A stretch of DNA of 22,946 nucleotides. It comes from Candidatus Borrarchaeum weybense. Lineage in GTDB: Archaea > Asgardarchaeota > Sifarchaeia > Borrarchaeales > Borrarchaeaceae. Position numbers and translations under genes: made by a program. Below are positions 4,587 to 22,851 of the stretch, in pieces; position 1 is the stretch's first letter; each line of letters begins with the position of its first letter. The stretch lies in contig JAHQJS010000001.1 in NCBI GenBank assembly GCA_019057385.1, positions 51,825-74,770 of the forward strand. Direction: 5' to 3'. The notes beneath the pieces are model-generated. The model was not told the origin of the DNA. It worked only from the letters and a program-made list of their open reading frames with translations, and ran no database searches.

Positions 4587-5174
4587 TTATCTTATTTCTG
4601 GTCTCATCAATTCTAATGATTTCACCTTTGATTTGAAAAATTTAGTCCAATACTTTCTATTAGTATTTACTTTAGCATTGCAACTTCTACACAAAGTTAT
4701 TAAGTTATTAGAATCTAAATTTTCCTTCGCATAATCAATATGATGAATAGATAATTTCTTGCCTTCATCTTCCTGAGTTTTATCACAAAGTTGGCACGTA
4801 TGATTATCTCTTTCTCTAATTGATTCTTTCAATTCTTCATTGAATTCAAATGGATATGGAAAGTTTGAGATTCCTCCTTTCCAATTAAAATTCCTCTCGC
4901 CAAGATGAGAAATTTTCATTTTCTCTTTAGTATCTTCAGAATGATGTCTACCGAACATTGGATTATTTTGTCCAGTTCCATCTCTCTTAGCTTTGCAGAT
5001 GCAGCAGCTGCAGTTTGGTTTGTGGTTCAGAGGTTTCCCTCTATTCCAAGCAGGTTTACCCCTTCTATGATGTGCAGATAAATACTTAGGGATTCCAGTG
5101 TATTTATGATGAGGCTTTATTTCTATTCTGTCGCCGCAACCGCAGGTGCAAAAATGTAAATAGTATTTGATCAC
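4587..5174 (-). CDS. Free-standing NUMOD3-HNH homing endonuclease
   Basis: CTCGCG N-terminus; NUMOD3-like NPMFGRHHSEDTKEKM; NWKGG; HNH core IRERDNHTCQLC...IHHIDY...NNLITLCRSCN. Confidence 0.9.
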   Translation of the reverse strand: MIKYYLHFCTCGCGDRIEIKPHHKYTGIPKYLSAHHRRGKPAWNRGKPLNHKPNCSCCICKAKRDGTGQNNPMFGRHHSEDTKEKMKISHLGERNFNWKGGISNFPYPFEFNEELKESIRERDNHTCQLCDKTQEDEGKKLSIHHIDYAKENLDSNNLITLCRSCNAKVNTNRKYWTKFFKSKVKSLELMRPEIR

Positions 5175-5590
5175 TGCAGCTCTGGCCTCAATTTCACATC
5201 TATAATAAACTGCTCGGTGTAATGTCGGTTGTTCTTTCCAATGTAATCCCTATGGAAAGTGACTTTGGTTACCTTATTTTTCTTTATCGACCATTTCCCA
5301 AACATCTTATTCAAATCATCATCACTTATTCTATCTAAAAATTGATTGACAGTGACTTTCCTTTTGCCCCAAAAATTCTCAGGGTCTTTATGGCGAATCT
5401 CAACTTTCCCCCACATCTTAATTCGCTCTAACCATCCTGGTATAGTAACATCAAAAGTACAAGGGAGAATTTCTGGAGTAGCTATCTCATCGCGCATCCG
5501 ATCTAATTCAGTTGCGGTCAAGGTTTCTTCCAGAGTTGGTCCCTTATCTCCCTGGAGCAGAATGTCATATAAAACAGTATCCATCATCAT
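5171..5590 (-). CDS. Hypothetical protein
   Basis: 139-aa ORF with ATGA overlaps on both sides; no recognisable family. Confidence 0.7.
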   Translation of the reverse strand: MMMDTVLYDILLQGDKGPTLEETLTATELDRMRDEIATPEILPCTFDVTIPGWLERIKMWGKVEIRHKDPENFWGKRKVTVNQFLDRISDDDLNKMFGKWSIKKNKVTKVTFHRDYIGKNNRHYTEQFIIDVKLRPELQ

Positions 5591-5850
5591 CCTTCTACCT
5601 TTAGTGAGACGACTTTATCTTCAGGAACATTATATTTTTTCATTAAATATTCCAAGTCGTCACTAGATTCTACCGTTTCAGGTTTTCCTCTTCCTTTATC
5701 ATCCCAATAACCATATCGTGGTATCACCATCGCAACTTTACCTGTCTTAGCATCTATGGCTTCAAACGACTTTCCAAAGTCAGTAATAAATCCCTTCCCG
5801 GTAGGTTCAAATTCATTAACTATTCTTTCATACAATTCGTTATCCATCAC
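5587..5850 (-). CDS. Hypothetical protein with leader-like N-terminus (MDNELYERIVNE); likely start ATG 5847
   Basis: Coupled to both neighbours; GGAG upstream; no recognisable family. Confidence 0.7.
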   Translation of the reverse strand: MMDNELYERIVNEFEPTGKGFITDFGKSFEAIDAKTGKVAMVIPRYGYWDDKGRGKPETVESSDDLEYLMKKYNVPEDKVVSLKVEG

Positions 5851-6788
5851 TCCACCTTGTATATAGATCCATCTGCGACAGAACTTTGTAATGTTTCGGT
5901 TACTTTAACAGAAGTTACATCACTGGCATATCCAGAACTAACCACAGTATAGATTCCATCATTTCCTGTAGAATTCTGAATCCTAAACTTCTCGCCGGCA
6001 GAGAAGTCTCCTGGGAAGTTACCAAAGATTTTCACGAGGTTGTTAGTAAGATCTATCTCATAAATATCATATAAGTTTCTTCTAAAGAACCTTAGAGCAG
6101 CTTCCAGTTCGGTATTCTGATCCGAATCATCAACAATGATTTCCTCATAATTCTCAACTTGATCTTTATCGTAGAATGTTACAACTATCTTGCTTATCGT
6201 CTTGAAGCTAAGACCTCTGAATATCCAGGCATCGATCTTGATAGGCATCTTGAAGCAAAAAACTATTCCTTTTTCAAATTCTTCAGGAACAGTAGATTCA
6301 TCAACAATATCCCCAAGATGAATATCTGGAGTAATCTCATATAGGTCATTATATTTAAGCGAAACTTTGGGATTGTCTTGCTGCCAGAATATATAATCCT
6401 CCATGCATTCATAAATCTTATCTAAATCTTTGCTCCAAAACCAAACATTATATCTCAAATCCACTGGAACAGCTTTGACGTGTGCAGTTTCTTGAGTAGT
6501 GGAACTTGTCGAAACCCACATTCCCCTTCTTGAAACAACACTTCTATTTCTATCCCAACTAAAACTTGTTCCTTCTCTATAAAAATTTATGAACTCTAGA
6601 AAATTTTCTCCCCGCTTCTCGGCGGCGATTCTCATAGCCGTGTCTTTTGGAAATTGAAATACTCCCTCATTAATATTTTCCTCTTCTATGCTATGCTGAG
6701 TATCAATTCCCAAATTAGATCCAAATCGATCATAGATAAGGAGTTTCAGGGCTAAGTCATAGCTTCTTAAGAAAGAACTATTCGCCAT
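5847..6788 (-). CDS. Tail terminator / sheath stabiliser (T4 gp15-like) with an extra C-terminal beta domain
   Basis: VKAVPVDLRYNVWFWSKDLDKIYECMEDY matches the gp15-type pattern; located between the neck and sheath genes. Confidence 0.65.
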   Translation of the reverse strand: MANSSFLRSYDLALKLLIYDRFGSNLGIDTQHSIEEENINEGVFQFPKDTAMRIAAEKRGENFLEFINFYREGTSFSWDRNRSVVSRRGMWVSTSSTTQETAHVKAVPVDLRYNVWFWSKDLDKIYECMEDYIFWQQDNPKVSLKYNDLYEITPDIHLGDIVDESTVPEEFEKGIVFCFKMPIKIDAWIFRGLSFKTISKIVVTFYDKDQVENYEEIIVDDSDQNTELEAALRFFRRNLYDIYEIDLTNNLVKIFGNFPGDFSAGEKFRIQNSTGNDGIYTVVSSGYASDVTSVKVTETLQSSVADGSIYKVE

Positions 6789-7038
6789 CTTCTACGCCCC
6801 TCAAAATCTTTATGAAATACTTCACAACCAAATCTTCAAACTCTCTGGTTGGGCAAGCCAAGTTAGTTTTTACCCATTGCTCGGCGAACAATTCTGGACC
6901 CGTCCCGAGAATAATATCTTTAGCATCCTTATAACTTTTGTACATCATAAGAGACGCCATTAAAGCGCTCTGGTGAAATAGAAAATCAGCAGGACAACTA
7001 GGATCACATTCTAATTGTAGTTTAACCTTAAAATCCAT
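6778..7038 (-). CDS. Hypothetical protein
   Basis: 86-aa ORF overlapping both neighbours in the operon. Confidence 0.65.
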   Translation of the reverse strand: MDFKVKLQLECDPSCPADFLFHQSALMASLMMYKSYKDAKDIILGTGPELFAEQWVKTNLACPTREFEDLVVKYFIKILRGVEDGE

Positions 7039-7241
7039 TAGTCGAGCAATCTTGTTTTGCCCTCACTTTCGTTAACTTCAGTAAGATCCCGAGTAAAGGA
7101 CACCTGTCCTTTCAACTCATCTTCGTTGGTTATACTAACATTCTCAAGAGAAGATCCACTAGGAAGATCAACTTGTTGTCCATTCTTAAGTTTTAATGGA
7201 ACAGTCTTCTGAGAAATATTTTGTATTCTTTTAGCTTTCAT
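7038..7241 (-). CDS. Small hypothetical protein, possibly virion-associated
   Basis: 67 aa, SD AAGGGAG; short beta-rich domain (RIQNISQKTVPL...QVDLPSG). Confidence 0.7.
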   Translation of the reverse strand: MKAKRIQNISQKTVPLKLKNGQQVDLPSGSSLENVSITNEDELKGQVSFTRDLTEVNESEGKTRLLD

Positions 7242-7253
7242 TACTCTCCCTTC

Positions 7254-7742
7254 TTATGCCTGAACCCTTCTTGGAACAGCCGAGTAGGTTTTTCTTATAA
7301 CTGCGTCTTGCATTCCCTTACTCGCCGCATTTACTATTTCAAATTGTTCAGCTCCCTTATAATTTCCAGGAATGAATTCCGGCTCTATCTCAAAATAACT
7401 TCTTCTGCAGACATCAATGCTTACTACTTGCCCAGCATTTGCTCCAGAGATAGCCGTAGCTTTATTACCAAACCAAACTAATATTGGCAGCACATCCTCT
7501 GTAAATAGACCTAACTTCTTTAGTCTATATAAACTTGGATTCCAGTTAATGAAAATTTTAGCTGAGTAGCTATCAAAACTATAATCACTTGGTGTAGCAA
7601 ATACATCAAGTTTTTCCGCCGTGTTATATGATGATGTAGTAGGAATATACAAAGTACAGTCCATTCCAATAGCATCTAAAGCTACATCAACGTAGTCTCG
7701 AAGTACATCAATCGTCTCTCTTGGAAACATTCGCGTAGTCAT
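7254..7742 (-). CDS. Head closure / neck protein (T4 gp14-like)
   Basis: LRDYVDVALDAIGMDCTLYIP and LKKLGLFTED resemble gp14-type motifs; located upstream of the gp15-like gene. Confidence 0.6.
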   Translation of the reverse strand: MTTRMFPRETIDVLRDYVDVALDAIGMDCTLYIPTTSSYNTAEKLDVFATPSDYSFDSYSAKIFINWNPSLYRLKKLGLFTEDVLPILVWFGNKATAISGANAGQVVSIDVCRRSYFEIEPEFIPGNYKGAEQFEIVNAASKGMQDAVIRKTYSAVPRRVQA

Positions 7743-7743
7743 A

Positions 7744-8655
7744 TCATACTCCCATAATACTCTTGATTTTGCTCACCTCATCTGGAGTTATTTCCTCATC
7801 CTTAAGAAGTTCCTCTAATTCCTTTATGATTGTCATATACTGGTAACGAGCTATAAACTTAAAAGCCGCATTCATATCTCTCCAGTCATTAACCAGCTTT
7901 GTGTTCTTGAGGTCTTCCCACGACTTGATAGCCTTATTTCCAAGCCTTCTCAACTCAACCCAATTCTTTCTCTTTAGGTGCAAACTCTCTATATCCTTTT
8001 CAATATCCTCAAGTTTGCCTTTTAATCGAACACGAAGTTTTTCCTGAGCTTCTTTTGGTAGCCGAGGCAAAACACCATGGATTGTTTCATAGTCGATTAC
8101 ATCCCTCTTTAATTCGCCTATAACTATATCCGTTCCCTGAACAGCATTTTTTATGTCATCGCCAATATTTGAAAAGTCTTCATAAGGATCGAAATCCATT
8201 GGAACTATTCTAGGACCTTTTTTCCATTCATCGTTTTGAACATCATATACAGAATCGGAAAGGTGGTCAATATGTGATTGTAGCTGCACAAAAACTTCGA
8301 TCCTATGTTTGTCTACAAAAGCATCTATCTCCTCAGCATGCTCATCGAACCAAACTTTCGTCTCTTTTTGCTTTTCCTCAGTCCATGCACTAATATCCTT
8401 GGGAACAATATGGACGTCGATATCCGCATCTTCAGTGTAAAGATTCGTACCAATAGATCCTACTATCCTAATTTCCTCTGCTATATCTACCAGGTCAACT
8501 GGTTCATAAGCTTTAAGAACATCGAATATCTTTTCTTTAACCTCTGGCCTTAGAATATATTTATCTTCACTCTTTTGCCAAACAGATAAATCCAAATCTT
8601 CTTGAGGAAAGTCAATTAAAGATTCTTTTAAGATTTTTTCGAGAAGATTTCTCAT
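7744..8655 (-). CDS. Pol-beta superfamily nucleotidyltransferase with a C-terminal helical region
   Basis: Signature hG[S]x(8-13)DhDh seen as IVGSIGTNLYTEDADIDVHIV; third acidic residue in IEVFVQ; SVYDV..DEW..GP. Confidence 0.85.
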   Translation of the reverse strand: MRNLLEKILKESLIDFPQEDLDLSVWQKSEDKYILRPEVKEKIFDVLKAYEPVDLVDIAEEIRIVGSIGTNLYTEDADIDVHIVPKDISAWTEEKQKETKVWFDEHAEEIDAFVDKHRIEVFVQLQSHIDHLSDSVYDVQNDEWKKGPRIVPMDFDPYEDFSNIGDDIKNAVQGTDIVIGELKRDVIDYETIHGVLPRLPKEAQEKLRVRLKGKLEDIEKDIESLHLKRKNWVELRRLGNKAIKSWEDLKNTKLVNDWRDMNAAFKFIARYQYMTIIKELEELLKDEEITPDEVSKIKSIMGV

Positions 8656-8966
8656 ATGTCTTCTACTTCAGCCTCACCCTTCTTGAGTAGTTCTTCTTCA
8701 TTCGCAGCCAAATCGTTCAAAAGCTTCTGGAATTCTCCAACATGAACGCGTTCTTCGTCCGCTATACTCAGTAAAACTTTCTTGACCTTTTCATTGTCTG
8801 TAGCATCTGCGTGTGCTTGATAAAGATGAGTAGCTTCTTCTTCAGCTGCTAAGTCAAGTCTGAGCGCTCTTATTAATTCAGCGTCTGTCATCTTCCTTGG
8901 AGGAACCATCCCGCTAAAAGGATTTACAAATGCTGCTTCATGTAGCTTTTCTATAAGTTCGTGCAT
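8652..8966 (-). CDS. Ferritin-like protein of the short encapsulin-associated / rubrerythrin half-domain type
   Basis: FVNPF..., ELIRALRLDLAAEEEATHLY and IADEERVHVGEF give the E..A...Y and EExxH di-iron half-sites of EncFtn/Flp-type proteins. Confidence 0.88.
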   Translation of the reverse strand: MHELIEKLHEAAFVNPFSGMVPPRKMTDAELIRALRLDLAAEEEATHLYQAHADATDNEKVKKVLLSIADEERVHVGEFQKLLNDLAANEEELLKKGEAEVEDI

Positions 8967-8967
8967 A

Positions 8968-9549
8968 TCACATCCCTTTATAATCCTTTATATAGTCCAC
9001 TGTTTCCTGAGGAGCCTTATCTATTCCTAAGGTATTCAAATTCCCCGCACCCCAGTTATAAGCTGCCAGCCTATTTTCTACAGTATCCTCAATTCCAAAA
9101 TGTTTAAGTAGTCGTGGAATTTCCACATTCATATAATAATTAGCAACGGCAGTATTTTTATCTGCATCATGAGCTTCTTCCCAAGTCCAATCTTCGCCCA
9201 TCTTTTTAACCATCTGCTCCCAAGTAGGTCTCATGATCTGATATAAGCCTCTCGCTCCTTTAGGTGAATCAGGAGTATCCGGATCATTTCTAGACTCAAT
9301 CCAAGCGATCTTGGACATATCGATAGAAACTTTAGATATCTCTTTTGGTGCAGTAATAACAGGTTTCTCAACAGGTTTCTCAACTGAACTAGCAGGTTTT
9401 TCTGCTGTTCCCTTCCATAAACCTAAACCAGCAGCAGCTCCACCTATAAGTCCAGTAGCAGCAGCCGTTCTAAGAGTTTTCTTTATATCCAACTCATTAA
9501 CCGCCTCTTCTTTTGTGGCAGCCAAAGTTTTCTCAAGAAGTTCATACAT
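8968..9549 (-). CDS. Lytic transglycosylase (SLT domain) with an N-terminal hydrophobic segment
   Basis: SLT motifs IES (catalytic Glu), GARGLYQIMRPT, LAAYNWGAG and ETVDY. Confidence 0.93.
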   Translation of the reverse strand: MYELLEKTLAATKEEAVNELDIKKTLRTAAATGLIGGAAAGLGLWKGTAEKPASSVEKPVEKPVITAPKEISKVSIDMSKIAWIESRNDPDTPDSPKGARGLYQIMRPTWEQMVKKMGEDWTWEEAHDADKNTAVANYYMNVEIPRLLKHFGIEDTVENRLAAYNWGAGNLNTLGIDKAPQETVDYIKDYKGM

Positions 9550-9550
9550 T

Positions 9551-9958
9551 TTAGTGACTCGGATAATAAAAGCCTACCGCAACATCCTCAACTCCGCCCT
9601 CACGGTTGATTCTTATCGTGAGTGATTCAGCGGCATATCCCGATCCAGGAAGCCAATCTATATGCCAGTCAACCGCGTCGAAGTCAAAAAGCACTTCTAT
9701 AGTATCCACATGATTATCTTCAGCATCAACTATCTCTACATCAAACTCAACTCTTCCTCGTGGAGTAACTGTTATGTCCTTTATGCCCCAGTCTCGATAC
9801 TCAATTTCGATATCATATGATATGCGAATACTATCCGGACTCTGCTCTTCTTCGCCATCTTTCAAACCATCAACATAAACAGAAACAGTATCAACGTTTA
9901 TACTATAGTTTTCGTCAGCTTCATTCAGGTTTGATAATTTTTCAACAATCTCTCGCAT
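9551..9958 (-). CDS. Acidic hypothetical protein
   Basis: 135 aa, about 33 D/E versus 10 K/R by hand count; coupled to its neighbours. Confidence 0.8.
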   Translation of the reverse strand: MREIVEKLSNLNEADENYSINVDTVSVYVDGLKDGEEEQSPDSIRISYDIEIEYRDWGIKDITVTPRGRVEFDVEIVDAEDNHVDTIEVLFDFDAVDWHIDWLPGSGYAAESLTIRINREGGVEDVAVGFYYPSH

Positions 9959-12351
9959 TATTCTTCCTTTACGATGACCATGAACTTCTTTGGATCTTCC
10001 TCATCCGTTACAACCTGACCCTTTTCTTTCCGAGCGATTTCTTCAGCATTAGCCTTATCTTCAATTCCCTTAGCTATAGTTGAAAAAGTTTGCTCATCTA
10101 CTTTATCTTCACTAACAAGCCCGGCGAATTTCGCATTCAAAGTCCGAGCAAGCTCTTTTCCCTTTTTTGTAAGTTTATCTAAATCAGGATCGGTATCTAC
10201 CTCTATCTTCTCTCCTTTTGGTAGTTCGACGATGCTAAGATTAAAAACATCTGAGTCTATTTTGCTTCTTGAAATCTCAATAACTACTTGTGATTCCACA
10301 TCAGCTTCAATCTCTTTTTGCCTCATCTCTTTTTCTTCCAACTCAGACCTCATCGGAATCGCTCTGTTTTTCTCCACCCAGTTAGCTTGATAATCAGTGA
10401 ATACGCGAATCTTTTTCCCCGCCACGTTCTGCGGACGAAAAGCAGAAACCGGATCTCCTTTTTTATCTAATAAAGGATTGCTCCAGAGTTGATTATGCTC
10501 ATACTTAAATGTTAAATCCCAATCCTCTTCCTTCTCGTTAGTTGTAGCTGCAAGATAAGGTTTCATAGCCTTAGTAAGAAGGATATGTTTTAGATACACT
10601 ATTCTAAAATCTTGTATATCATCAAAATCAGCTATTGCTGCGTCGACTCCAGCCTTGGTTAACTCATCAACCATCTGCTCATCGGATGGCCATTCATTCG
10701 GGATAACTCCATCCTCAAGGGCTTTATATAGCGCCGCTTGCTCTTCTTTTTCTATTCCAGGTACTTCGCCAACTAACTCGCGAATCCCCTCCTTGAGGCT
10801 TGACTCAAAAGGGGCATCATCCCCCTCTTTACTTCCTTTCTTCGGTTCTTCTGTAATTGGTCCTTCAACTTTAATATCCTCTCTAGATGGACGCTTGGCT
10901 TCTCTTTCAGCATGAGCTTTATCAAAGGCCATAACCGTTGTAGATTCTTCTTTTCCAGTACTCTTATTTTTCCAGGTTACCTTAAAAGGTTCTTTTGTTT
11001 GACCAGCGGCTAAGTCGGAATCTCTTCCCTCCATAGCTCTCTCAATTTTTTCGACAGAGATAATTTCAGCTGACGGATTTTTATCTTCAACAAACTGCTT
11101 CGCATCCTCTTCATCAAAGGCCATGACCTTATCCTCTTTTTCCTTCTCCCCATCCTTAAAAACTACTTTGAAGGGCTTCTTGAAAAAGTGAACAGTTCCT
11201 TTCTCCTCTTGAGTTATTCTTTCGGTATTCTCACTATCGCACTCAGTACACTTTGATTCATTACTTCGGAAAGTTCTGCAGCACTCATTACATAACCAAA
11301 GTGGTTTTTGTCTGCTCACAAAAGAAAATTTAGAATCTTTAACTCCTCTGGCCAGGAGCAAGTTTCGAACATCTGGAGCGGACATTTTTCCTTTTGAAGA
11401 TTTTGCAGCTTTCTGAACAGCTTGCTCCCTTGTCATTTGACTTTCTTCTCTGGCTTTCCTATAAACTTTTATCACAGCATCTTCTAGAGTATCCACCTGC
11501 TCCATGGCCGCACCAAAAAGCCCTCTTTCTTTCATCTCATCTTCATATGCTTTTAGCACTTCCTCAGACTGAGTGATAAGTTCAGCATGTGCTTTGTCCG
11601 CCTTCCAAAGCTCAAGAGATCTACGAGCATTAGAATGAAGTTTTTTGAGTTCATCATCAGAAATATCCTTAATTCCTTCTATTACAGATTCCTTCTTTGG
11701 TTTAACCACCTTATCCGGTTCTATTTTTAACTCATCATCCTCAACGGGTTTGATAACATCTTCAGCATCTTTGGGTTTCTTTTTTGGCTTTTCGAGATCC
11801 TCTTTTGAGAGATCCTCCATATGAGAATCTTCAGCTTTAACATCTGGCTCCTCCTGAGGCTTCATAGTTTGCTCAGCATCTTCAGCTTCATTAGTTGTAG
11901 ATTCTCTTGGTGGAATACCTAAAGTTTCTCCCGGAGCTACGTCCTCTACATGTCCGCATTTTAGGCATTTGATCTTGCCTTCTATTTCAGCTGTCTTCCC
12001 AGATCCACACCTAACACATCTATACTTCTCATTGACTTCAGAATCCTTCAACTCACTTGCACATACATTAGTAATGACAAAACCATCTTCAAACATTATG
12101 CTATAGCGAGCCACTTCTTCTCCAACGGATTCAACAACTTCAGCTACAGATTCGTTATGATTCAGCCTGCTTGCATGCTCATCAGCTCCAAGTGTTCTAA
12201 CAAGGTCAGAATTATTAAGACCAGAGCCAAACATATTATAGACTACTTTATCGCCCTTCTTAAATGAGCCTCTTTCTTCATCTATATCCGGGGTTGTGGA
12301 TTCCCGAATTTTGCCCAGTAGGTTAAGTACATCCTCATCTTTTGGATACAT
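9958..12351 (-). CDS. Large modular Glu/Lys-rich protein (SH3-like module, two Zn ribbons, internal repeat); probable internal head protein
   Basis: 797-aa ORF with CVRC..CLKC, CNEC..CTEC and a duplicated PFKV.[FW]K....E...VMAFD...A unit; SD GGAG. The function is inferred. Confidence 0.75.
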   Translation of the reverse strand: MYPKDEDVLNLLGKIRESTTPDIDEERGSFKKGDKVVYNMFGSGLNNSDLVRTLGADEHASRLNHNESVAEVVESVGEEVARYSIMFEDGFVITNVCASELKDSEVNEKYRCVRCGSGKTAEIEGKIKCLKCGHVEDVAPGETLGIPPRESTTNEAEDAEQTMKPQEEPDVKAEDSHMEDLSKEDLEKPKKKPKDAEDVIKPVEDDELKIEPDKVVKPKKESVIEGIKDISDDELKKLHSNARRSLELWKADKAHAELITQSEEVLKAYEDEMKERGLFGAAMEQVDTLEDAVIKVYRKAREESQMTREQAVQKAAKSSKGKMSAPDVRNLLLARGVKDSKFSFVSRQKPLWLCNECCRTFRSNESKCTECDSENTERITQEEKGTVHFFKKPFKVVFKDGEKEKEDKVMAFDEEDAKQFVEDKNPSAEIISVEKIERAMEGRDSDLAAGQTKEPFKVTWKNKSTGKEESTTVMAFDKAHAEREAKRPSREDIKVEGPITEEPKKGSKEGDDAPFESSLKEGIRELVGEVPGIEKEEQAALYKALEDGVIPNEWPSDEQMVDELTKAGVDAAIADFDDIQDFRIVYLKHILLTKAMKPYLAATTNEKEEDWDLTFKYEHNQLWSNPLLDKKGDPVSAFRPQNVAGKKIRVFTDYQANWVEKNRAIPMRSELEEKEMRQKEIEADVESQVVIEISRSKIDSDVFNLSIVELPKGEKIEVDTDPDLDKLTKKGKELARTLNAKFAGLVSEDKVDEQTFSTIAKGIEDKANAEEIARKEKGQVVTDEEDPKKFMVIVKEE

Positions 12352-12352
12352 T

Positions 12353-12796
12353 CTACTTCTCCTCTTTTTCCATAGGTATTAAATCAACACTCTCCCCGTC
12401 GATATTTGTCCATTTCCCAGTTTTGCCGGTATTCTCCCAATCAATAAGATCCTTCACGCGGTCACTTATCTTCTTATCTCTCGACCAATGAGCTACATGA
12501 TGTTTTCGACCATCCTTCATCACCGGCCTATAACAAATAGGTAGATCGGAAAATCTTAGATTAAGCAATTTGTGGATGCTTCTGGGAACAGAACCTGCGG
12601 AGAGTATGAATCCAAGAATTTCCTGAGCCTTCTTATCTTTAGGTAGTATTTTCTTCCCTTGTTCTGAGGCAACATCAAACAAATTATCCACGCCAGTCGC
12701 TGGAACTGAGGCGGAATAATCACCTAAAGTTTTGAGTAATTTCTGGTATAGGCTCACATCTCGAGCTTCTCGAATTTGCTTAAGTATGTTATCCAT
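12353..12796 (-). CDS. Hypothetical protein with leader MDNILKQIREA
   Basis: 147 aa; SD AGAGGA. Confidence 0.75.
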   Translation of the reverse strand: MDNILKQIREARDVSLYQKLLKTLGDYSASVPATGVDNLFDVASEQGKKILPKDKKAQEILGFILSAGSVPRSIHKLLNLRFSDLPICYRPVMKDGRKHHVAHWSRDKKISDRVKDLIDWENTGKTGKWTNIDGESVDLIPMEKEEK

Positions 12797-12867
12797 TGCT
12801 ATTCCTCTAACAATCCTTCATACAATCTTCTACGTTCCAACGTATATATGTTAACTATAAGATATGA

Positions 12868-13755
12868 TTACTTAGTCATATCCTCTATAACTTCGTAAAG
12901 TGTACCGAAAAAGTCGGTATTGAATTTCTCGTCACTCGGATATAATACTCTCCCAACTCTCTTAACAGAAGACACCCGTTTCTCTACCTCATCTAAAACA
13001 TGTTCGCTATCTACATAAATAGACTCGGAGACCATAAAAGAGGTATCGACAGCAGCTTCAAAAATTAACGGGATATCATGAAATTTGCTTTTTATTCTAG
13101 TTCCATAGATGTTATCATAGCCTTTGAATACCTCATGGGCACTTAACGGCCTGCCACTATCTATATCATCGATAAGCATCTCCATGTTGCCTTTATCTTC
13201 ACCATAGACATATAAGAGACCACTGGATAACTTCTGAGAATCCTTCTCTTTATTTTCAAATCTTATAGCAACTTTGTCTTCATTGGTTACAAACTCAGAT
13301 ACTCCAAAACGACTTGCCCAAACTTTTATTGTTTTGTCCAAGGAAGAAAATCTTTGCTCATTGAGCATCTCAGTTATAACCGGCTTCAAATCATCACGAA
13401 GCTTTTCAAGATCATCCTCCATAGCTTCGTTCAAGAGATCTTTTAAATTTAGGTATGAATCATCATCCAACTTTCCTGAGAACATTTCTTGGAAAGCTTC
13501 CCAGTGCTCTTTTGGAACGATGATCCTTAGAGCGTCTTCAATTCTAATATCCTTATTCCCATTGTCATCTTCCAATATTTCTAAACCCCATTTCCACTTC
13601 TGTCTCGATAAGTCTTTAACTTTAGTTCTGATAGCTCCCAAGTGAGCTGGAATAAAAGTTATGGCGTCCATTGTAGTGGCTTCGATGAGTTTTATTCTCC
13701 TATGAATCTCAACCTGCCCCAACTCGTCACACATATCAAAGTATTCTCTTGTCAT
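12868..13755 (-). CDS. Hypothetical protein
   Basis: 295 aa, TAATG-coupled to the upstream gene; SD GAGG. Confidence 0.8.
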   Translation of the reverse strand: MTREYFDMCDELGQVEIHRRIKLIEATTMDAITFIPAHLGAIRTKVKDLSRQKWKWGLEILEDDNGNKDIRIEDALRIIVPKEHWEAFQEMFSGKLDDDSYLNLKDLLNEAMEDDLEKLRDDLKPVITEMLNEQRFSSLDKTIKVWASRFGVSEFVTNEDKVAIRFENKEKDSQKLSSGLLYVYGEDKGNMEMLIDDIDSGRPLSAHEVFKGYDNIYGTRIKSKFHDIPLIFEAAVDTSFMVSESIYVDSEHVLDEVEKRVSSVKRVGRVLYPSDEKFNTDFFGTLYEVIEDMTK

Positions 13756-14153
13756 TACCTCACCCTAACTAGATCTAAAAATTCTTTCCAACTGCTGCCT
13801 TCTTTTCCTTTTCTCGGATGTTTATATTCAAAGAAAAACTTATCCTCATTTTTAGCTAATTTATACAAAGATTTAATTTGACTTTCACTAGGCATTACAG
13901 AAAACATCACATCCATCTCTGACCGGGGCTCGTTTAGTAACCAACGGATATTCCCTCTATTTAAAAATTCATCATAAGCTAGACCAGGATTACCAGACCA
14001 ACCTTCTTTCTCCAATGCCTCCAAGGCATAAGTATCATGATCCCCTATCACATATTGAGGAATCTCTTCAATTCTACCATCAGAAAGAACGTAACCTCCT
14101 CTTTTGAAATACGTCCACTGCTCACACAAACATTTCTCAAGAAGTTCAAACAT
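13755..14153 (-). CDS. Hypothetical protein with leader MFELLEKCLCE
   Basis: 132 aa; GGYVLSDG..H..GNIRW pattern; coupled on both sides. Confidence 0.75.
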   Translation of the reverse strand: MFELLEKCLCEQWTYFKRGGYVLSDGRIEEIPQYVIGDHDTYALEALEKEGWSGNPGLAYDEFLNRGNIRWLLNEPRSEMDVMFSVMPSESQIKSLYKLAKNEDKFFFEYKHPRKGKEGSSWKEFLDLVRVR

Positions 14154-15001
14154 TAGAAAAGCTCTTCCTCTGGAGGTCGTTCTCTCTTTCTTGGAGTTTC
14201 TACCTCTGGTTCTTCTTCAGGTTTTTCCGGTTCTCTTTCTGGACGCCTTCTGAGACGTTTTCCAGGTTTTCGTTTCGGCTTTTTTCTAACTTTCTTTTTC
14301 GGCTTTTCTTCTTCCTCTTCTTCTGGTTCCTCTAGCTCTTCCGGTTCTTCTGGTACTCCTGCTCGCCGTTTTCTTAAAGCTGCGGCCGCTCGTTTAACCC
14401 AACCAAACTCTTCTTTTGCTTCATCCTCCCACTCGCGTATTTCTTTACCGTAGAAATCCCGAAGCCACTTTGCCATTGTACTTCCATAGAATGGAAAGGC
14501 CTTGAGCAATCTGTCTAAGTGCTTACAAACCATTCCATATTGTCTTGGATTTCTGACTTTTGGAGGACGCGTCTCCTTCCTTGTATACTTAGCATCATAT
14601 TTGCCCAAACTCCTTATATAGTGACCACCCCAGTAAAGGTCTGCCGGGCAAGAGCAGAATAATTGAATATCCGCCCTATTCATAAATTCCTTGGCCAGCT
14701 TTCTCAGGTCAACTCTTGATTTGTCTGCAGTCCAAAACCTTCTATCCTTGACCAATCTTTCTAATGTTGGTTTCACATTCTTAAAGTGGATATATCCATC
14801 ATACCAGACATCATCTTTTGTCCCACTATGCAGCCTAAACTTCCAAGTCTCTGGATCTTGATCATCAAGACGAATGCCTCCCTTATCTTCTACTCCCTTT
14901 GTCTTTTTGTCGAAGTCGGGAAAGAGTCGTTTTATGGATCGATGCTTCCTTAAAATATCACTAGCGGTAGCTTCTACTAATTTATCTATTAAATCAATCA
15001 T
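14153..15001 (-). CDS. SWIM-like zinc-finger protein with a charged low-complexity tail
   Basis: CxC...CKH (FCSCPA...RNP...GMVCKHL); the C-terminus alternates poly-Glu and Lys/Arg blocks. Confidence 0.75.
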   Translation of the reverse strand: MIDLIDKLVEATASDILRKHRSIKRLFPDFDKKTKGVEDKGGIRLDDQDPETWKFRLHSGTKDDVWYDGYIHFKNVKPTLERLVKDRRFWTADKSRVDLRKLAKEFMNRADIQLFCSCPADLYWGGHYIRSLGKYDAKYTRKETRPPKVRNPRQYGMVCKHLDRLLKAFPFYGSTMAKWLRDFYGKEIREWEDEAKEEFGWVKRAAAALRKRRAGVPEEPEELEEPEEEEEEKPKKKVRKKPKRKPGKRLRRRPEREPEKPEEEPEVETPRKRERPPEEELF

Positions 15002-15636
15002 TGTGTACTAAGTAAATCTCCACTCAGTAATATTCTAAAGTTTTGTGTCTTTCCAATATCCGTGATTGCTACGTCTTGGATTTTTAAGCCCCATCCATCT
15101 GAGGCGTTTCTAACTGATTCTAAAAGTTTATTTTTTAACTCATCCAAACTGGATTTTAGCTCATCCAAGGTATGCTGACGGACATAATCACAAACCACGC
15201 CTAAGACCACATTTTGAAGACTCTGGTCGTAATCATGAACCTCCAGAAGAGCTTTCATGGCATTCTTAACATAATATCTGATAGATGTACCAACAGTTAC
15301 ATCATGACCATCTTTTGTCCAAACTGATTGAGCTCTAATATCCTTTACTTGCGTTTTAGTTTTGCATGTTTCATATTCCATTATCCAAGGAATTATCCAA
15401 TACCATCCTCCTGCCTTTGTTTCAGTAAGCCAGGTATTTTCATGTTTTACTCTTGGATGCCAAGGCTTCATCGCCCATGGCTTTTTGATCCATGTCCATC
15501 TAATCCAAGGCCAGTAATCCCACGGCCATCCTTTCCAAGGTTTTGGTACCTGCCTAAAGCCAGCTTCATCATCTCGGATAATAGCGGGCCTTGGAATAAA
15601 TCCTGTTATTGTTTCTAATAAAGATATGACCCACAT
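14998..15636 (-). CDS. SPFH / Band 7 domain protein with a Trp/Pro-rich insertion
   Basis: GWYWIIPWI, QSVWTKDGHDVTV...IRYYV, WGLKIQDVAITDI are typical SPFH elements. No clear SD. Confidence 0.85.
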   Translation of the reverse strand: MWVISLLETITGFIPRPAIIRDDEAGFRQVPKPWKGWPWDYWPWIRWTWIKKPWAMKPWHPRVKHENTWLTETKAGGWYWIIPWIMEYETCKTKTQVKDIRAQSVWTKDGHDVTVGTSIRYYVKNAMKALLEVHDYDQSLQNVVLGVVCDYVRQHTLDELKSSLDELKNKLLESVRNASDGWGLKIQDVAITDIGKTQNFRILLSGDLLSTQ

Positions 15637-16691: not shown

Positions 16692-17324
16692 TTATTCTTT
16701 AGGGATTTCTTCTACTTCTACTTCTGGATTCTCATCAGTTCTCTCGCCCGGTTGTAATTCTGGAGCATCAGGATTCATCTCTCTCCATTCCTCAACAGAA
16801 ATCTCTTCTACTTCAGGACCATTGGAAGTGGATATCTCCGGAGGATTTTCTGGAAGAACTATTCCTGACTCTTTCAACTGCTTTCCTTCAAACTCGGGCG
16901 TACCTTCCTTCCAAGGAGCATCTGGCTCTGCCGTCCCGGGTAGATCCGGAGTATCATCCACTCCATGCTCTGGAAGCGGTTCTTTAGGTCGGTTTATAAT
17001 ATTCTCACTGGGAACATTTTCAAGAGATGGTGCTGTAAGAGGAGCTTCACTGAGTACTGGAATTTCCTCAGGCTCTTCTACCTTCTCTTCAGGTTCCACC
17101 GCAACTACTTCCTCCTCACTAACTTCGGGAAGAACTACGGGAATTTCTTTTCTCTCTTCTTCATGCATTCCCGCTTCAACAATTATGCCCAATTTCAAAT
17201 GCGCTTCAAAATCCCCTCGGTCTTTGAAGTCCACTCTCTTTACTTCTCCCTTGGAAAGGAAATAAATTCCCCCACAAGTTTTCAATTGAAAATCTTTTAA
17301 CGCTCTAATTTTTTTCGTTATCAT
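16692..17324 (-). CDS. Hypothetical protein: small N-terminal domain plus Glu/Pro-rich disordered tail (start revised to ATG 17324, MITKK)
   Basis: The ORF-track extension to 17513 overlaps the capsid gene and its terminator. ATG 17324 has a purine-rich GGGAGAG upstream. Confidence 0.75.
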   Translation of the reverse strand: MITKKIRALKDFQLKTCGGIYFLSKGEVKRVDFKDRGDFEAHLKLGIIVEAGMHEEERKEIPVVLPEVSEEEVVAVEPEEKVEEPEEIPVLSEAPLTAPSLENVPSENIINRPKEPLPEHGVDDTPDLPGTAEPDAPWKEGTPEFEGKQLKESGIVLPENPPEISTSNGPEVEEISVEEWREMNPDAPELQPGERTDENPEVEVEEIPKE

Positions 17325-17348
17325 TTCTCTTTCTCTCCCATCAAATTC

Positions 17349-17386
17349 AAAAAGAAGCATAGGGAGGAAAAATATCCTCCCCATGC
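17349..17386 (-). terminator. Rho-independent terminator after the major capsid gene
   Basis: The minus strand reads GCATGGGGAGGA-TATTTT-TCCTCCCTATGC-TTCTTTTT. Confidence 0.85.
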
Positions 17387-17406
17387 GAACAAACAACGCG
17401 TCACTA

Positions 17407-18918
17407 CTACGAAGTCTGATATCCGGAGCCGAGATTAGTGATCTTGCCTTCGTTAAACAGACCGGCATTGATAACCTTGAAACCTGCTGCTGAGAGGAAT
17501 CCCTTCTGAGCAATCAAGTCACTGGTGATCAATGTTGGAGTGGTGAACAGAGGAATATACGGAGCATAAATGAAGCCCGCATAGAGATAACTTGGACCAC
17601 GGAAGCCACAAGTGTAATAATCTCTCCTCTTGAACGGGTTCTGGACAACCGTACGACCATCCAAGTCACCGATTACCATCGGACCAGTTGGAACTGGAGC
17701 GGCAGCCTTACGCGGAGTAAATCCATGATCAGTTAACTGCCTGATCACTCGGGCAACATTATTACCACAATGGATAAAGGTTGCCACACCACGTTTGGTT
17801 TTCTCAAAGATAAGGTTCGAAGCTTGTTCGATTCTATCTTTGAATTCTGCCTTTTTCCACAGCCAAGGTTCACCAAGACCAGGTCTGGCATCCCAATCGG
17901 TTGGAGCAGTAGCAGCTTCAGATGAAGATGCCGCTTCATCGATCATATCCAAACCTACTTGGTCAATGGTAAACTTAACTTCGCTGCCGAGATACTTCAC
18001 CAGTTCACTCTCAAGATCGATTCCATGCGCCTTCATTAAATCGATTTGAGCACCGATGCTGTACTTAGCCCTCAGTGGGAAGTCAATCGCTTCCACTGTT
18101 GACTGAGTGACAGATACATCAACTTCCGGAACGCCAGTCTTGTTGCCATAGGCGTCTTCCACAAGGTCATACTGGTAATCGTAAGTGATGTAAATAGTAT
18201 CGCTACTTGAAGTTCCGGTGACTATAAAGTAGTATGTTCCATTAGCAGCTATCGAACCAGTTCCACTAATATAAGTACCAGTAATCTGCCCTGAGGAGTT
18301 ACTGGAACCAACCAGAGTTCTGGATTCGTTGATAGTACCAATATTAGATACTGTCTCAATCTTGACATTCTCAAGATTGATCAACTTATTATAGTCAAGG
18401 GTACCAGAAGTGATACCATCACCTTGGCCGACAGCTTCGTCAACCACTCGAGCCATTGCATACCGACGTCCACTCTTGCCGATAGAATGACCAGTTTTGG
18501 CTCCAAGCATTGTATCTCCACTGGAGACGTTGCCCTTGTTGGAACCATATTTCACATCAAGATAGAACACAGCTGCGATTCGCCGATCCATAGCCTGCAC
18601 AACCGCTATCTCATTAAGAGCTAACGATGGCAGCAATGCCGCGATAACAGGAAGCTGAACGCCTAAGAAAGCAATATTATCCTCAGTTGTAGTTTCAAAC
18701 AACCTGGTTCCAGCTTTTAATCCTGTATCGATAATGGCATTGTAAAGACATTGTGCTACGTTCCGCTTCTCATAAACCGACATTCCACGGTTTTGATTAG
18801 CCTGAACGTGCTCTTCAACTATGCCGAGATACTTCTTGATTCGGGGAATCTTCATCAAGGCTTCTTGCTGTGAATGTAGGGCAGCTAATTGAGATTGTAC
18901 TAATTCTATGTCAGTCAT
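17407..18918 (-). CDS. Major capsid protein (T4 gp23-like, HK97 fold)
   Basis: EIAVVQAM, VFYLDVKY, LRAKYS..AQIDL..AHGIDLESEL, LYAGFIYAPYIPL. Start placed at ATG 18918, 8 nt after SD AGAGGGG. Candidate maturation site LFE|T at residues 73-76; ends TAG TAG TGA. Confidence 0.95.
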   Translation of the reverse strand: MTDIELVQSQLAALHSQQEALMKIPRIKKYLGIVEEHVQANQNRGMSVYEKRNVAQCLYNAIIDTGLKAGTRLFETTTEDNIAFLGVQLPVIAALLPSLALNEIAVVQAMDRRIAAVFYLDVKYGSNKGNVSSGDTMLGAKTGHSIGKSGRRYAMARVVDEAVGQGDGITSGTLDYNKLINLENVKIETVSNIGTINESRTLVGSSNSSGQITGTYISGTGSIAANGTYYFIVTGTSSSDTIYITYDYQYDLVEDAYGNKTGVPEVDVSVTQSTVEAIDFPLRAKYSIGAQIDLMKAHGIDLESELVKYLGSEVKFTIDQVGLDMIDEAASSSEAATAPTDWDARPGLGEPWLWKKAEFKDRIEQASNLIFEKTKRGVATFIHCGNNVARVIRQLTDHGFTPRKAAAPVPTGPMVIGDLDGRTVVQNPFKRRDYYTCGFRGPSYLYAGFIYAPYIPLFTTPTLITSDLIAQKGFLSAAGFKVINAGLFNEGKITNLGSGYQTS

Positions 18919-18937
18919 TTTCAAATCCCCTCTTTAA

Positions 18938-21900
18938 TTAACTGTTCATACCTTCAAACACATTATTTACACTACGTTTAGCTCTCTCATGTTCTGGATC
19001 ATTCTTAGGTTTACTAACAGCTACACCCGATATGGACTCAGAGTGAAGTGCACCCCGCCTGCTAGCATCTAAAATTTCATCTAGAACATCATCCACTTGT
19101 TCTGGCGATTCACAATCCTCAAGAAGTGCCCGAGAATTTTCATCGACTTTCAGATTAGTTTCAGAAAGTCTAAACTCAACAAAACGCTTAATAAACTCCT
19201 TTGTAACTTCTTCTCTTACTCTTTTTTCTGTTTCTGTTTTTGCCTCCTTAATCTTTTCCTTAGCTACTTCATTTGCTTCTTGCAATGCCTTTTCATGTTT
19301 TACTTTAGCTTCTTGTAAAGCTTTCTTATGCTTGCTCTCAGCAGCAGAAGCAGACTCCTTCAAACTCGTGATATCTTTAGACAGGTCGGATTTTATTTTC
19401 TCTACCTGTTTTTGAACTTTCTTAGCCTGCTCAACCTTCTCGTCCAACTGCTTTTGTAAATCAGCTGAAAGTTTTGCCTTCTCCTCTAATTTGGATCGTA
19501 ATGCTTCAACCTCTCGTTCCTTAGCTTCAAAGGTTTGATTCGCCTTTTTGATAAGTATTTTAGCTTCAAGAGCTTTTTCTTTTCTGGCCTTTGCCTTAAG
19601 GTCATTTTTCTCACTTGTAGCTTCTTCAAGAAGTTCCAATGTTTTATCTCTTTCAGCTCTTGTTGAAGCTTCCTTAACTTTCAGGTCTTTAATTTCTTTG
19701 GCAGTGGTTGAGATAGATTCCTTTTTACCTTTCTTCCTATGAGCTTTCTTCACAGCCTTTTCTTTTCCAAGTTGCTTCATGGCTGTAGGATAGGCTTTCT
19801 TAAGAGCTTCTTCTCCAGAATCGCCCCCATCTTTATATCCTTTAGCTATTTTAATAGCAAGCTCATGGAAAGCTTTTGTATGAATACCTTTACCATCTGG
19901 AGCAGGAAGTCCGGCATCCCGGTACATCTTCTTGATGTCTTCTGTTTCGTCTATCTCTTCGGACTCTTCTAACTCTTCCTCCGCCCATTCATTGTATTCA
20001 TTGATAAGCTCCTTAAGTTCTTCCACTCCAGGAATTTTATCACTTAAGTCAGGCAGCTCCTCTTCAATAGCTTTGATTGCATTTGGATTAGGATCTTCAA
20101 ACTCATGGTTTTCCAAATATTCCATCTGAGTAGCTATAGCAGTACCAAGGCGAGAGTCAAGGATGTTAAACAATTCTGTGTACTGTCCTTCGTATGTCCA
20201 AGCTCCTTCATCTACTTCTTCAGCTTCTTCAAGAACTTTTTTACCTTCATCACTGAGTTCTAATCCAACTTCTTTGCCTCTCTTAATTACCTCTTTCTTG
20301 GAATTGGTTAATCCTGTAAGATGTTTCGCAAAAGCATTGTCAATAGACTTGAAGAGTTTCTTCACATCCGCAGTAGACAACTTTTGTTCATCTACTTCAG
20401 ATTCTGATACTCCTTCTACATGTCCACACTTATGGCATTCCCACTGAGATATGTCTCCCTCGGCATGAGGTGCTCCTTCGGACATTTCAGCTCCGCACTT
20501 AGGACATTTCTTCTCGTCCAGCTTTTCTTCTAAAACCGGTTCGGTATATCCACACTTCACACACTCAAACTGATTATCTTCAGAATCAGGAATTGCCCTT
20601 ATCTCCATCTTTTCCTTACATTTTGGGCATTTCTTTTCATCTACTTTTTGCTCTTTGACTTTTTCATCAAAGGTACTCTTGATAATAGAATCTATCTTAT
20701 CCTTATTCAATCCGGAGAGATGAAGCACTTTTCGTATAGCATCTTCTTTCTTTCCTCTACGCTTCATCACTTGAGCAAGTTGGTGTGCATATACCAGATC
20801 TTCCTCATCTACTCGGGTTTCGGATATTTTTGTAAATCCTTCTCTATCAAAATCATTCCATGACTTCTTAACTAGAGCTCCAACACCTCCACCCATAACT
20901 TCCAGATTAACTCCGTTCACGTCAAAGCTATCTACAACATAAGATTCGCCTGCTCTATTCTGAACAACACTCCCTTTCTGGAGACCATGTGCTTCATCAA
21001 TTTCAGACTCAGATTCCTTAGTTGCTTTCTTGTGCTTATCACACTTCTCTTCCATCTCCTCTTCAGGCATTTCTGGTTCAGCTACTATCTCTGAATCAAC
21101 TTCTGGCTCTGGTGGAAGTTCAGGTTCTTTTTCTACCTCTTTTGGAGGTGGAACCAAAGTAATGCAAACCGAATCTGGATTCTCTACCTGAACTAACGTT
21201 CCATCATCAAGCATTACCCCAACACCTTGTTCGTCAATAGTAGTAACTTTCCCAGATTCATTTTCGTAATCACCTTCTGTAAGAATGACCTGGTCATCAA
21301 CTTCGATACTTTCCTTACCAGGCTTCTCCGCAGCTTTGCTAACTTCGATATTTTTATATTTACGCTTAACAGCACTTGCAACTTTTTTCACAAGGTCTTC
21401 CAAGCTTCCCTTATACCAAGGCGGAGCTTTGCTATACTGATTAGCTCTGGATAATGCATTCCTTGCCTGAGCTTTATTGTTAATTGGGAAGTGATCCTTA
21501 TCATCTTTAACCTTGGAACTTCCAGCAGGAAATATAACATCTCCTCTATTTCTAACTTTAGCCTTCGGATCCTTCTTAGCCTCTGGGACTGGCTCGTCTT
21601 TCATAAGTTCTTCAGGAGTTTCATCTCCAGTGACTGCTGGCATTCCCATTCCAGTATTTCCTGGTTCGGGCATTTCTACCGGAGGTTCTCCAGGACCTGG
21701 GCAAGGTGGAGCTTCTTGTTCCGGCTGAATAAATATTGTACCATCCAGCTCTATAATAACATAAGCTGCTCCATTTATCTTTACTTCTTTCCCACCACTA
21801 GAATCCATTCCAGGAATTGATATATCAACTTCTTTTCCTTCCTCAACCTTTGTAACTTTGCCTTCCATCTCATTGCCATCTTGGATAAAGTTGATTGGCA

Positions 21901-22688: not shown

Positions 22689-22771
22689 TAGCCTGGGCAG
22701 GATTCGAACCTGCAAGCTCGTTTGAGCAGTAGTTTCTAAGACTACCGTGTATGCCATTCCACCACCAGGCC
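22689..22771 (-). tRNA. trnL: tRNA-Leu (TAG)
   Basis: Acceptor GGCCTGG/CCAGGCT plus A73; anticodon arm GTAGT-CTTAGAA-ACTAC; long variable arm; T arm GCAGG-TTCGAAT-CCTGC; no CCA. Confidence 0.93.
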
Positions 22772-22775
22772 GTAG

Positions 22776-22847
22776 TGGAGAGGATGGGAATCGAACCCAC
22801 CACAGATTGCTTGCAAGGCATTCTCGCCCCTTGGAACATGCCTCCCC
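22776..22847 (-). tRNA. trnA: tRNA-Ala (TGC)
   Basis: Acceptor GGGGAGG/CCTCTCC with the G3:U70 Ala determinant and A73; loop CTTGCAA; T arm GTGGG-TTCGATT-CCCAT; weak D arm; no CCA. Confidence 0.88.
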
Positions 22848-22851
22848 AATG

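Follow-up and report, generated by a model that had tools for sequence, protein, structure and literature searches.

A shared N-terminal leader in the head module of an uncultured T4-type phage as a probable capsid-targeting propeptide, present also on a predicted encapsulin-type ferritin

In bacteriophage T4 the internal proteins IPI-III and Alt carry an N-terminal capsid targeting sequence (CTS), and gp21 removes propeptides from gp24, gp22 and gp23 (Mullaney & Black 1996, as reviewed in PMC9026906, PMC3012670, PMC5694885). According to the T4 record, these peptides read MKTYQEFIAE↓A in IPII and IPIII, MAKINELLRE↓STTT in gp24 and MLKEQLIAE↓A in gp22 (the arrow marks a cut, or a predicted cut, throughout), and gp23 is cut at FLTE↓AE, residue 65 (T4 record; PMC5694885). 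Mutagenesis of IPIII assigned targeting to positions 4 and 7 and processing to positions 8 and 10 (PMC9026906). In the giant phages phiKZ, 201phi2-1 and SPN3US a gp21 homologue removes propeptides which are thought to target the prohead (PMC5694885, PMC7411985). Here we analyse a stretch of 22,946 nucleotides (the window; G000:C1:51825-74770) from contig C1 of an assembly filed as archaeal, in which a block of adjacent, unrelated genes shares a short N-terminal leader. C1 is an uncultured T4-type phage, and the comparisons described below indicate that the shared peptide is probably a capsid-targeting propeptide of the T4 type. Coordinates are window positions unless marked C1 or L0xx; labels of the L0xx kind (L008, L010, L012, L035 and others) denote compared loci, mostly metagenomic relatives, L040 being a stretch of C1 itself.

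The minus strand carries all genes of the window, and those with a leader or a candidate leader are, in the order of transcription:

14153-15001, minus strand: SWIM-like Zn-finger protein, 282 aa, with a charged tail; leader MIDLIDKLVE↓ATASD (14972-15001)
13755-14153, minus strand: 132-aa protein; leader MFELLEKCLCE↓Q (14121-14153)
12868-13755, minus strand: conserved 295-aa protein; 25-aa leader ending RRIKLIE↓ATTMD (13681-13755)
12353-12796, minus strand: conserved 147-aa protein; leader MDNILKQIRE↓ARD (12767-12796), kept by its orthologues
9958-12351, minus strand: 797-aa protein; 17-aa leader ending VLNLLGKIRE↓STTPD (12301-12351)
9551-9958, minus strand: acidic 135-aa protein; leader MREIVEKLSNLNE↓A (9920-9958)
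8968-9549, minus strand: lytic transglycosylase (SLT), 193 aa; leader MYELLEKTLAATKEEAVNE↓L (9493-9549; MYELLEKTL..AVNE), followed by a hydrophobic segment
8652-8966, minus strand: predicted EncFtn/FLP ferritin-like protein, 104 aa; leader MHELIEKLHE↓A (8937-8966)
7744-8655, minus strand: Pol-beta-type nucleotidyltransferase, 303 aa; leader MRNLLEKILKE↓SLIDFP (8623-8655)
5587-5850, minus strand: 86/87-aa protein; weaker candidate leader MDNELYERIVNE↓F (5812-5847, from the ATG at 5847)

An earlier note, made from the sequence alone, had quoted ten such N-termini as one leader on unrelated open reading frames (ORFs), and all ten were found on the minus strand as given. The idea of a single leader holds in part. 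A clear core, M-x-[DEN]-[LI]-[LIV]-x-K-[LICT], is common to eight adjacent, unrelated genes (7744-15001), while the gene at 12868-13755 has a different, longer leader and that at 5587-5850 a weaker one. The core follows directly after the Met, with the exception of the 797-aa protein, where it stands at offset 8. The supposed ending in [LIV]-x-E before a small residue is seen in seven of the ten, which end [LIV]-x-E↓[A/S]; in the other three the Glu is followed by Q, L or F. Sheath, tube and HNH genes were said to be free of the leader, which is correct, and the neck-like genes likewise are without the motif. The bodies of the tagged proteins are unrelated to each other according to Pfam and BLASTP. 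The 86/87-aa gene is set apart from the main block by leaderless neck-like genes and has neither orthologues in the relatives nor a family match; its leader resembles the DKLYENML type, and it is plausible that this is a weaker but real member of the set.

The enrichment of the leader in this block, which the earlier note implied, was borne out in three ways. The whole 4.18-Mb assembly, translated in six frames, contains the expression M.[ED][LI][LIV][ED]K 14 times, five of these being ORF starts in this 7-kb block, and a looser expression gave 23 matches in the assembly, seven of them in the block. By leave-one-out scoring every leader was among the best 0-47 of 4565 other ORF N-termini. With a matrix built from 48 leaders of other contigs only, block proteins ranked 1, 3 (the 87-aa protein), 6, 8, 29 and 38 of 4580, for which a simple binomial estimate is of the order of 1e-8. 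A chance origin of the shared leader is excluded. The leaders differ in their synonymous codons and the DNA upstream of them is unrelated, which indicates that the peptide, and not the DNA, is under selection. In the models of the 295-aa and SWIM-like proteins the leader forms an N-terminal helix followed by a low-confidence stretch. Apart from chance, a DNA-level repeat and a secretion signal were considered as readings of the leader, and both were rejected.

The block is preceded in the direction of transcription by the two genes on which a comparison with T4 turns:

18938-22645, minus strand: 1235-aa fusion protein, with a prohead protease of the gp21/S77 type at the N-terminus (up to about residue 230), then roughly 750 aa of small modules with Zn ribbons, and finally a C-terminal coiled coil
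17407-18924, minus strand: gp23-type major capsid protein, likely start ATG at 18918 (Pfam Gp23, 2.2e-36; phrog_138)

The earlier note had claimed that a gp21-type protease is encoded and that the capsid protein has LFE↓T at a gp23-like position, and both claims are in line with our data. The protease domain matches Pfam Peptidase_S77 (PF03420; 4.5e-9, 36.5 bits against a cut-off of 27), phrog_207 (head maturation protease, 1.5e-29) and, by BLASTP, T4 gp21 (4e-9). Its GHAEHP and GVSTR motifs align to His85 and Ser140 of T4 gp21, which we take to be the catalytic residues. The last approximately 250 residues of the fusion form a Lys/Glu-rich coiled coil where T4 has the gp22 scaffold, and orthologues of the protein are found in all relatives. 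Its start, MKLVETILAKPILEE↓V, is one of several leader-like starts overlooked in the earlier note, the others being on the SPFH protein discussed below and on genes just outside the window. In the capsid protein the site reads RLFE↓TTTED, with a predicted propeptide of residues 1-75 (18694-18918), and is kept in 13 relatives as RLFE↓[TAS]TTED and in a distant clade as TLSE↓TTTED. Behind the Glu stands [AST]-T-[TAS], which recurs in three leaders (KLVE↓ATASD, KLIE↓ATTMD and KIRE↓STTPD). The six-residue pattern [LIVFM].E[AST][TS][TASM] occurs 11 times on C1, of which six occurrences are in this head module.

Used as a query, the capsid protein retrieved loci with 54-85% identity, four from IMG/VR and 33 from metagenomes. 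Species-representative genomes contained no relatives of the capsid protein and cultured phages no near-identical DNA; among the capsid proteins of cultured phages the closest have 25-29% identity. In the closest cultured group (Thornevirus, Listeria phage LIS04) the protease gene is followed by the capsid protein and neck genes, with no tagged block. The leader and its Glu are kept by orthologues in about 15 related metagenomic contigs with capsid-protein identities of 54-81%. Among nine orthologues of the SWIM-like protein E10 and A11 are invariant (KLVE↓ATASD, KIIE↓ATASD, QIHE↓ATTKQ, ELFE↓ATTSQ), and among seven of the 295-aa protein E25 and T27 (KLIE↓ATTMD, RLLE↓ATTMS, PIFE↓TTTSD), the post-Glu residues of the latter protein resembling the TTTED of the capsid protein. 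The orthologues of the 797-aa protein have the sites LLAKMQE↓ATTSE, LLRKIQE↓STTQD and LDRINE↓SVPRID.

The relatives carry the same leader on further small genes with unrelated bodies, several of no known family. In L010 the position of the 132-aa gene is occupied by an unrelated 121-aa protein with a near-identical leader, MFDKLLEKCLCE (LLEKCLCE), and the BLASTP similarity is limited to the first approximately 14 residues. By our own count there are about 18 unrelated tagged families in a dozen loci. The payload is broad, as had been proposed, with SLT, EncFtn, Pol-beta nucleotidyltransferase and SWIM-like proteins in the window, and in relatives an RyR-domain protein and a 121-aa protein with a nucleotidyltransferase-like G-S..D-x-D motif (read by eye). 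The SWIM-like protein has the motif C-x-C...C-x-H and a match to phrog_4315 (7.6e-8); its model, with a predicted local distance difference test (pLDDT) score of 62, gave no clear fold match, with weak matches in BFVD to uncharacterised and SWIM-type phage proteins. The transglycosylase is assigned by Pfam SLT (PF01464; 4.4e-11, 42.8 bits against a cut-off of 21.3), its PHROG matches include phrog_342 ("internal virion protein with endolysin domain", 1.3e-8), and the start of its gene is coupled to the stop codon of the upstream gene. The nucleotidyltransferase has the G-S..D-x-D motif in its sequence, Pfam matches to MTPAP-like and NTP_transf_2 that are both below their cut-offs, and Atlas clusters of viral NTP_transf_2. 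No family match was obtained for the 132-aa protein in Pfam or PHROG, and the 797-aa protein has no relatives in these two collections and no usable Atlas match.

From this comparison we infer core binding, cleavage, residence in the virion and ejection of the tagged proteins, in the following manner. During prohead assembly the short amphipathic leader would give a protein affinity for the internal core, which is probably built from the protease-scaffold fusion encoded upstream. After closure of the gp23-type shell the gp21/S77-type protease would cut behind the Glu of [LIVF]-x-E, as in the capsid propeptide. The mature proteins would stay in the head, and some may leave it with the DNA at infection; among the enzymes the transglycosylase is the clearest candidate for ejection, and the nucleotidyltransferase is a possible one. 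The leader would then be a portable address, attached to at least about 18 unrelated families and used also as an internal linker in fused, polyprotein-like forms.

Indirect evidence for the leader as a compartment address is strongest in the case of the 104-aa ferritin, a protein with a native role as cargo of an HK97-fold shell, which has lost its encapsulin address and gained the leader, or rides on a tagged partner. Judged by its sequence this protein is an encapsulin-type ferritin-like protein (EncFtn/FLP). Its match to Pfam Rubrerythrin (1.6e-8) is above the cut-off and that to EncFtn-like below it, and its best PDB matches are encapsulin cargo: EncC (7s8t, 6.7e-18), the P. furiosus FLP (5n5e, 5e-12) and an FLP-encapsulin fusion (2e0z, 5e-11), with EncB also among them. 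The E-x-x-H iron sites AAEEEATH and DEERVH of a two-helix half-ferritin are present. More than 1100 homologues with 65-78% identity align over residues of about 12-104 only. The cellular EncFtn homologues begin at the predicted mature N-terminus, which agrees with the suggestion that the leader is a phage-specific addition. At its C-terminus (..GEAEVEDI) the window protein has no TVGxL motif and lacks the encapsulin targeting peptide. Among the 120 ferritin homologues listed the leader is found in four, the window protein and three metagenomic ones, and the encapsulin peptide in none of these four; at least two of the three metagenomic proteins are on contigs with the gene order of the window. 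At least 57 other listed homologues have the leaderless start MPEF[VT]NPFSG and end ..[IL]PT[VI]G[ND]LK (e.g. ..IPTVGNLKK), and the cellular endings fit the FLP targeting consensus L/F-x-V/I-x-x-L/I (PMC11202242). The two cellular homologues that were looked up lie on long contigs directly upstream of Linocin_M18 shell genes. The assembly has no match to Linocin_M18/encapsulin and no second ferritin.

At L035:18158-19180 and L012:6169-7125 a linker of about 100 aa joins EncFtn, here with no leader, to a homologue of the 147-aa protein, with the junction ..KMNIFE↓AKD at the domain boundary, and this fusion suggests that EncFtn and the 147-aa protein act together. A tentative reading, to which we give slightly less than even weight, is that this widespread lineage has exchanged the C-terminal encapsulin peptide of a bacterial EncFtn ferroxidase for the leader and in this way moved the enzyme out of an HK97-fold nanocompartment and into a virus capsid of the same fold, and that a portable N-terminal address, which also serves as a protease-cut linker, fills the capsid with fast-changing enzymes. 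In a DNA-filled head a ferroxidase could protect the DNA from Fe(II)/peroxide chemistry, or it could be delivered to the host. We found no paper on a phage-borne, leader-tagged EncFtn in the literature.

The use of the cut site as a linker can be followed best in the nucleotidyltransferase family, for which the 120 homologues listed are all metagenomic. A junction of the type [LVIFM]-x-E↓S before IDFP is present in 116 of these, with L, V, I, F or M at P3 in 111/116, Glu at P1 in 109/116 and Ser at P1' in 111/116; sites of orthologues read KILKE↓SLIDFP, LEVGE↓SSIDYP and KVVQE↓SSIDFP. The junction is kept with anything from 3 to more than 100 residues upstream (more than 45 in 31 homologues). 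Among the long forms, several have the leader at their start and a few show it again immediately ahead of the junction (..LLEKILHVDE↓SS), so that, as far as the sequences go, the long forms would look like proteins with a protease-cut linker. In the metagenomic protein P0178 (499 aa) SLT is joined to the nucleotidyltransferase via ..NSVGE↓STIDFP, and two of the cargos of the window therefore form a single chain elsewhere.

Several observations weigh against a targeting propeptide with effector cargo. Position 7, which matters for targeting in T4 and is Phe there, is Lys in the present leader. The residue after the Glu is unusual at the three candidate sites with Q, L or F, and the candidate sites of the SLT and 135-aa proteins are not conserved; the latter has a single orthologue (L008), in which the core MRDIYEKL is kept and the site is not the same. 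The E-S-S of the nucleotidyltransferase is retained even with just 3-5 residues upstream, and it may therefore belong to the nucleotidyltransferase fold, instead of or besides being a cut site. The ferritin of the distant clade (L035, L012) does not itself bear a leader. Finally, the most conserved of the tagged proteins (SWIM-like, 295-aa, 147-aa and 797-aa) could be structural or core proteins and not effectors.

This last point leads to the alternative that the leaders are indeed propeptides removed by the protease, and that the tagged proteins are mainly parts for building and assembling the head (core, vertex-associated or internal-body proteins) rather than effectors delivered to the host. 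T4 gp24, gp67 and gp68 are head structural or core proteins, and gp24 carries the same kind of 10-aa propeptide. The four proteins just named are the conserved backbone of the block in all relatives, and backbone proteins share the post-Glu [AST]-T-[TAS] of the capsid protein. Against this, the variable members (EncFtn, nucleotidyltransferases, SLT, RyR domain) are enzymes or small swappable proteins with a rapid turnover between relatives, a pattern typical of accessory cargo, and the AlphaFold model of the 295-aa protein (weak, pLDDT 68) showed no HK97-like or other structural fold match with Foldseek against the PDB. We regard this explanation as unlikely. The 295-aa protein was also considered as a gp24-like vertex paralogue of the capsid protein, which is unsupported: BLASTP against the capsid protein and phmmer against the PDB gave nothing.

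A further alternative is that the leader serves for recognition by a different partner with a gene in the vicinity, such as a modifying enzyme, a chaperone, an aminopeptidase of the M42 type or the product of the gene directly upstream of the block:

14998-15636, minus strand: SPFH/Band_7 protein with a Trp-rich N-terminal part; leader-like start MWVISLLETITGF, in relatives MWLETLLEKITSF (Pfam Band_7, 1e-20)

This gene has orthologues in L015, L023, L035, L013 and L012, and in L010 its place is taken by an M42 glutamyl aminopeptidase (L010:18655-19758; Pfam 3.7e-56), of which orthologues are found in the same place in L008 (13504-14580) and L033 (15801-16895). An SPFH or an M42 gene is always located just upstream of the block, but which of the two it is changes from relative to relative. 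The leader moreover ends in the same site as the capsid propeptide, the block is inside the head module, EncFtn has exchanged one shell-address peptide for the leader, and the radical-SAM-like genes of C1 are at a great distance from the block, and we consider a partner unrelated to the capsid to be quite improbable. That the shared start is a mere by-product of recombination or of a common translation-initiation cassette, with no function of the peptide, is hardly credible: 15 leader nucleotides are identical in just two genes (13755-14153 and 8968-9549) and the replacement downstream of a constant leader is cassette-like, but synonymous codons vary, the DNA upstream shows no conservation, orthologues retain the motif even where capsid-protein identity falls to 54%, the motif occurs inside long fused proteins, where no initiation is needed, and the most highly expressed late genes (capsid, sheath, tube) are without it. 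A capsid-targeting propeptide of the T4 type remains the reading that we prefer.

The transcription order of the window begins with two tRNA genes, followed by the 1235-aa protease fusion, the gp23-type capsid gene, three small genes and the SPFH/Band_7 gene. Next come the tagged block (from 15001 to 7744), four neck-like genes without a leader and the 87-aa gene, and a 139-aa gene and an HNH endonuclease gene precede the sheath, tube and baseplate genes. The features not given above are:

22689-22771 and 22851-22924: tRNA-Leu(TAG) and tRNA-Thr(TGT), 5' of the protease gene
4587-5174, minus strand: HNH/NUMOD3 gene

The small ORFs listed at the tRNA stretch (22689-22924) are probably no genes. 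The long ORF 16692-17513, after the capsid gene, has a probable internal start, ..MITKKIRALKDFQL, as in relatives, and encodes an acidic, Pro/Glu-rich tail the length of which differs among the relatives. The capsid gene itself (17407-18924) is uninterrupted in the window. In many relatives (L009, L015, L017, L019, L026, L033, L035) it is split into two to four pieces by inserts which encode HNH/Zn-ribbon endonuclease-like ORFs, one recurrent break being right after ..AFLGV, and these inserts look like introns or inteins; the HNH/NUMOD3 gene of the window is related.

Outside the window, just past its high end, C1:74918-78292 encodes a 1124-aa protein with the start MDKYFDLIAE↓N and no family match. 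In the L010 homologue of this protein one module resembles residues of about 353-457 of the 1235-aa protease fusion, and the protein may be another polyprotein that undergoes processing, or one associated with the portal; searches of the upstream 16 kb with Pfam and PHROGs recognised no portal. Further away, C1:84242-86257 (L040:9472-11487, minus strand) encodes a 671-aa protein with the start MIESIFENIRDRE.. and a C-terminal Tad3 (type I Thoeris inhibitor) domain (Pfam 5.4e-33), and the adjoining gene a 211-aa protein with the start MSKRNKLFDKLVKA. It is possible that these two are further tagged proteins, and the 671-aa protein may have an anti-defence function.

C1 has 179,096 bp with 39% GC, and its ORF map, with approximately 300 ORFs, is phage-like from end to end. 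Its replication genes comprise a family-A DNA polymerase, a bacterial-type RecA, a DnaB-like helicase, and gp32-like and clamp-loader proteins; the clamp is represented by a sub-threshold match to DNA_pol3_beta only. The contig further encodes the murein transglycosylase and lipobox-type signal peptides. Between C1 and the other contigs of the assembly there are no shared 20-mers beyond chance, and hence no spacer-like matches, and the contamination of the assembly is 7%. Since the replication genes are of bacterial type, a murein hydrolase and lipobox signals are present and spacer-like links are absent, C1 is read as mis-binned, and on this gene content it is probably a bacterial phage that ended up in the bin of an archaeon.

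The principle of such targeting is already known from T4 and, in a longer form, from the giant phages. New here are the lineage and the consensus of its leader, a tagged set of this size and turnover, the internal-linker role and the re-addressed encapsulin cargo. If the leader works as we suppose, the T4 capsid-targeting principle would extend to a distant and environmentally common phage lineage, and a second natural pair of address and cut site would become available for loading foreign proteins into phage heads. The reading predicts that a transglycosylase, nucleotidyltransferases and a ferroxidase are borne by the virion, where they may work at the very onset of infection or shield the packaged DNA. 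The address swap on the ferritin is independent evolutionary evidence for the leader as a compartment address, and it links the cargo loading of encapsulins and of phage capsids, HK97-fold shells whose relationship has been much discussed. If the ferritin has indeed been re-addressed into the capsid, the virion would carry an iron-oxidising enzyme, and cargo would have been exchanged naturally between encapsulins and their viral relatives.

Compared with the known systems, the closest likeness is to T4. In both cases an N-terminal peptide of 10-20 residues on unrelated proteins ends in [LI]-x-E before Ala, Ser or Thr; positions 4 and 8 are hydrophobic, Glu occupies position 10 and the residue at position 11 is small. 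Both phages also encode a protease of the gp21 family and a capsid protein of the gp23 family that has this site, and the cargo genes vary between relatives. The consensus differs, however, being M-x-E-L-L-E-K-I-L here and M-K-T-Y-Q-E-F-I-A-E in T4. The genes form one block inside the head-to-neck module, whereas those of T4 are scattered, and the tagged families are many more. Moreover, fused forms use the leader again as an internal linker, an encapsulin ferritin belongs to the cargo, and a single chain of 1235 aa combines the protease with modules and a coiled coil resembling a scaffold. The giant phages are similar in that many of their head and ejection proteins have N-terminal propeptides cut after Glu by an S77-type protease, but there the sites are [A/S/G]-x-E and most propeptides exceed 100 residues (PMC5694885), whereas here P3 is L, I, V or F and the leaders have 10-25 aa, as in T4. 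With T7 gp16-type proteins the transglycosylase shares an SLT domain on a protein predicted to be inside the head (the phrog_342 match), although it has 193 aa with a leader and a hydrophobic segment, in contrast to a core protein of 1300 aa. With the encapsulin FLP system the phage shares the cargo protein itself and the principle that an HK97-fold shell is filled through a short terminal address peptide. The phage copy of this protein differs in having an N-terminal leader and no C-terminal peptide, with no shell gene in the assembly; its presumed shell is the DNA-filled gp23-type capsid, in which the address would be cut off.

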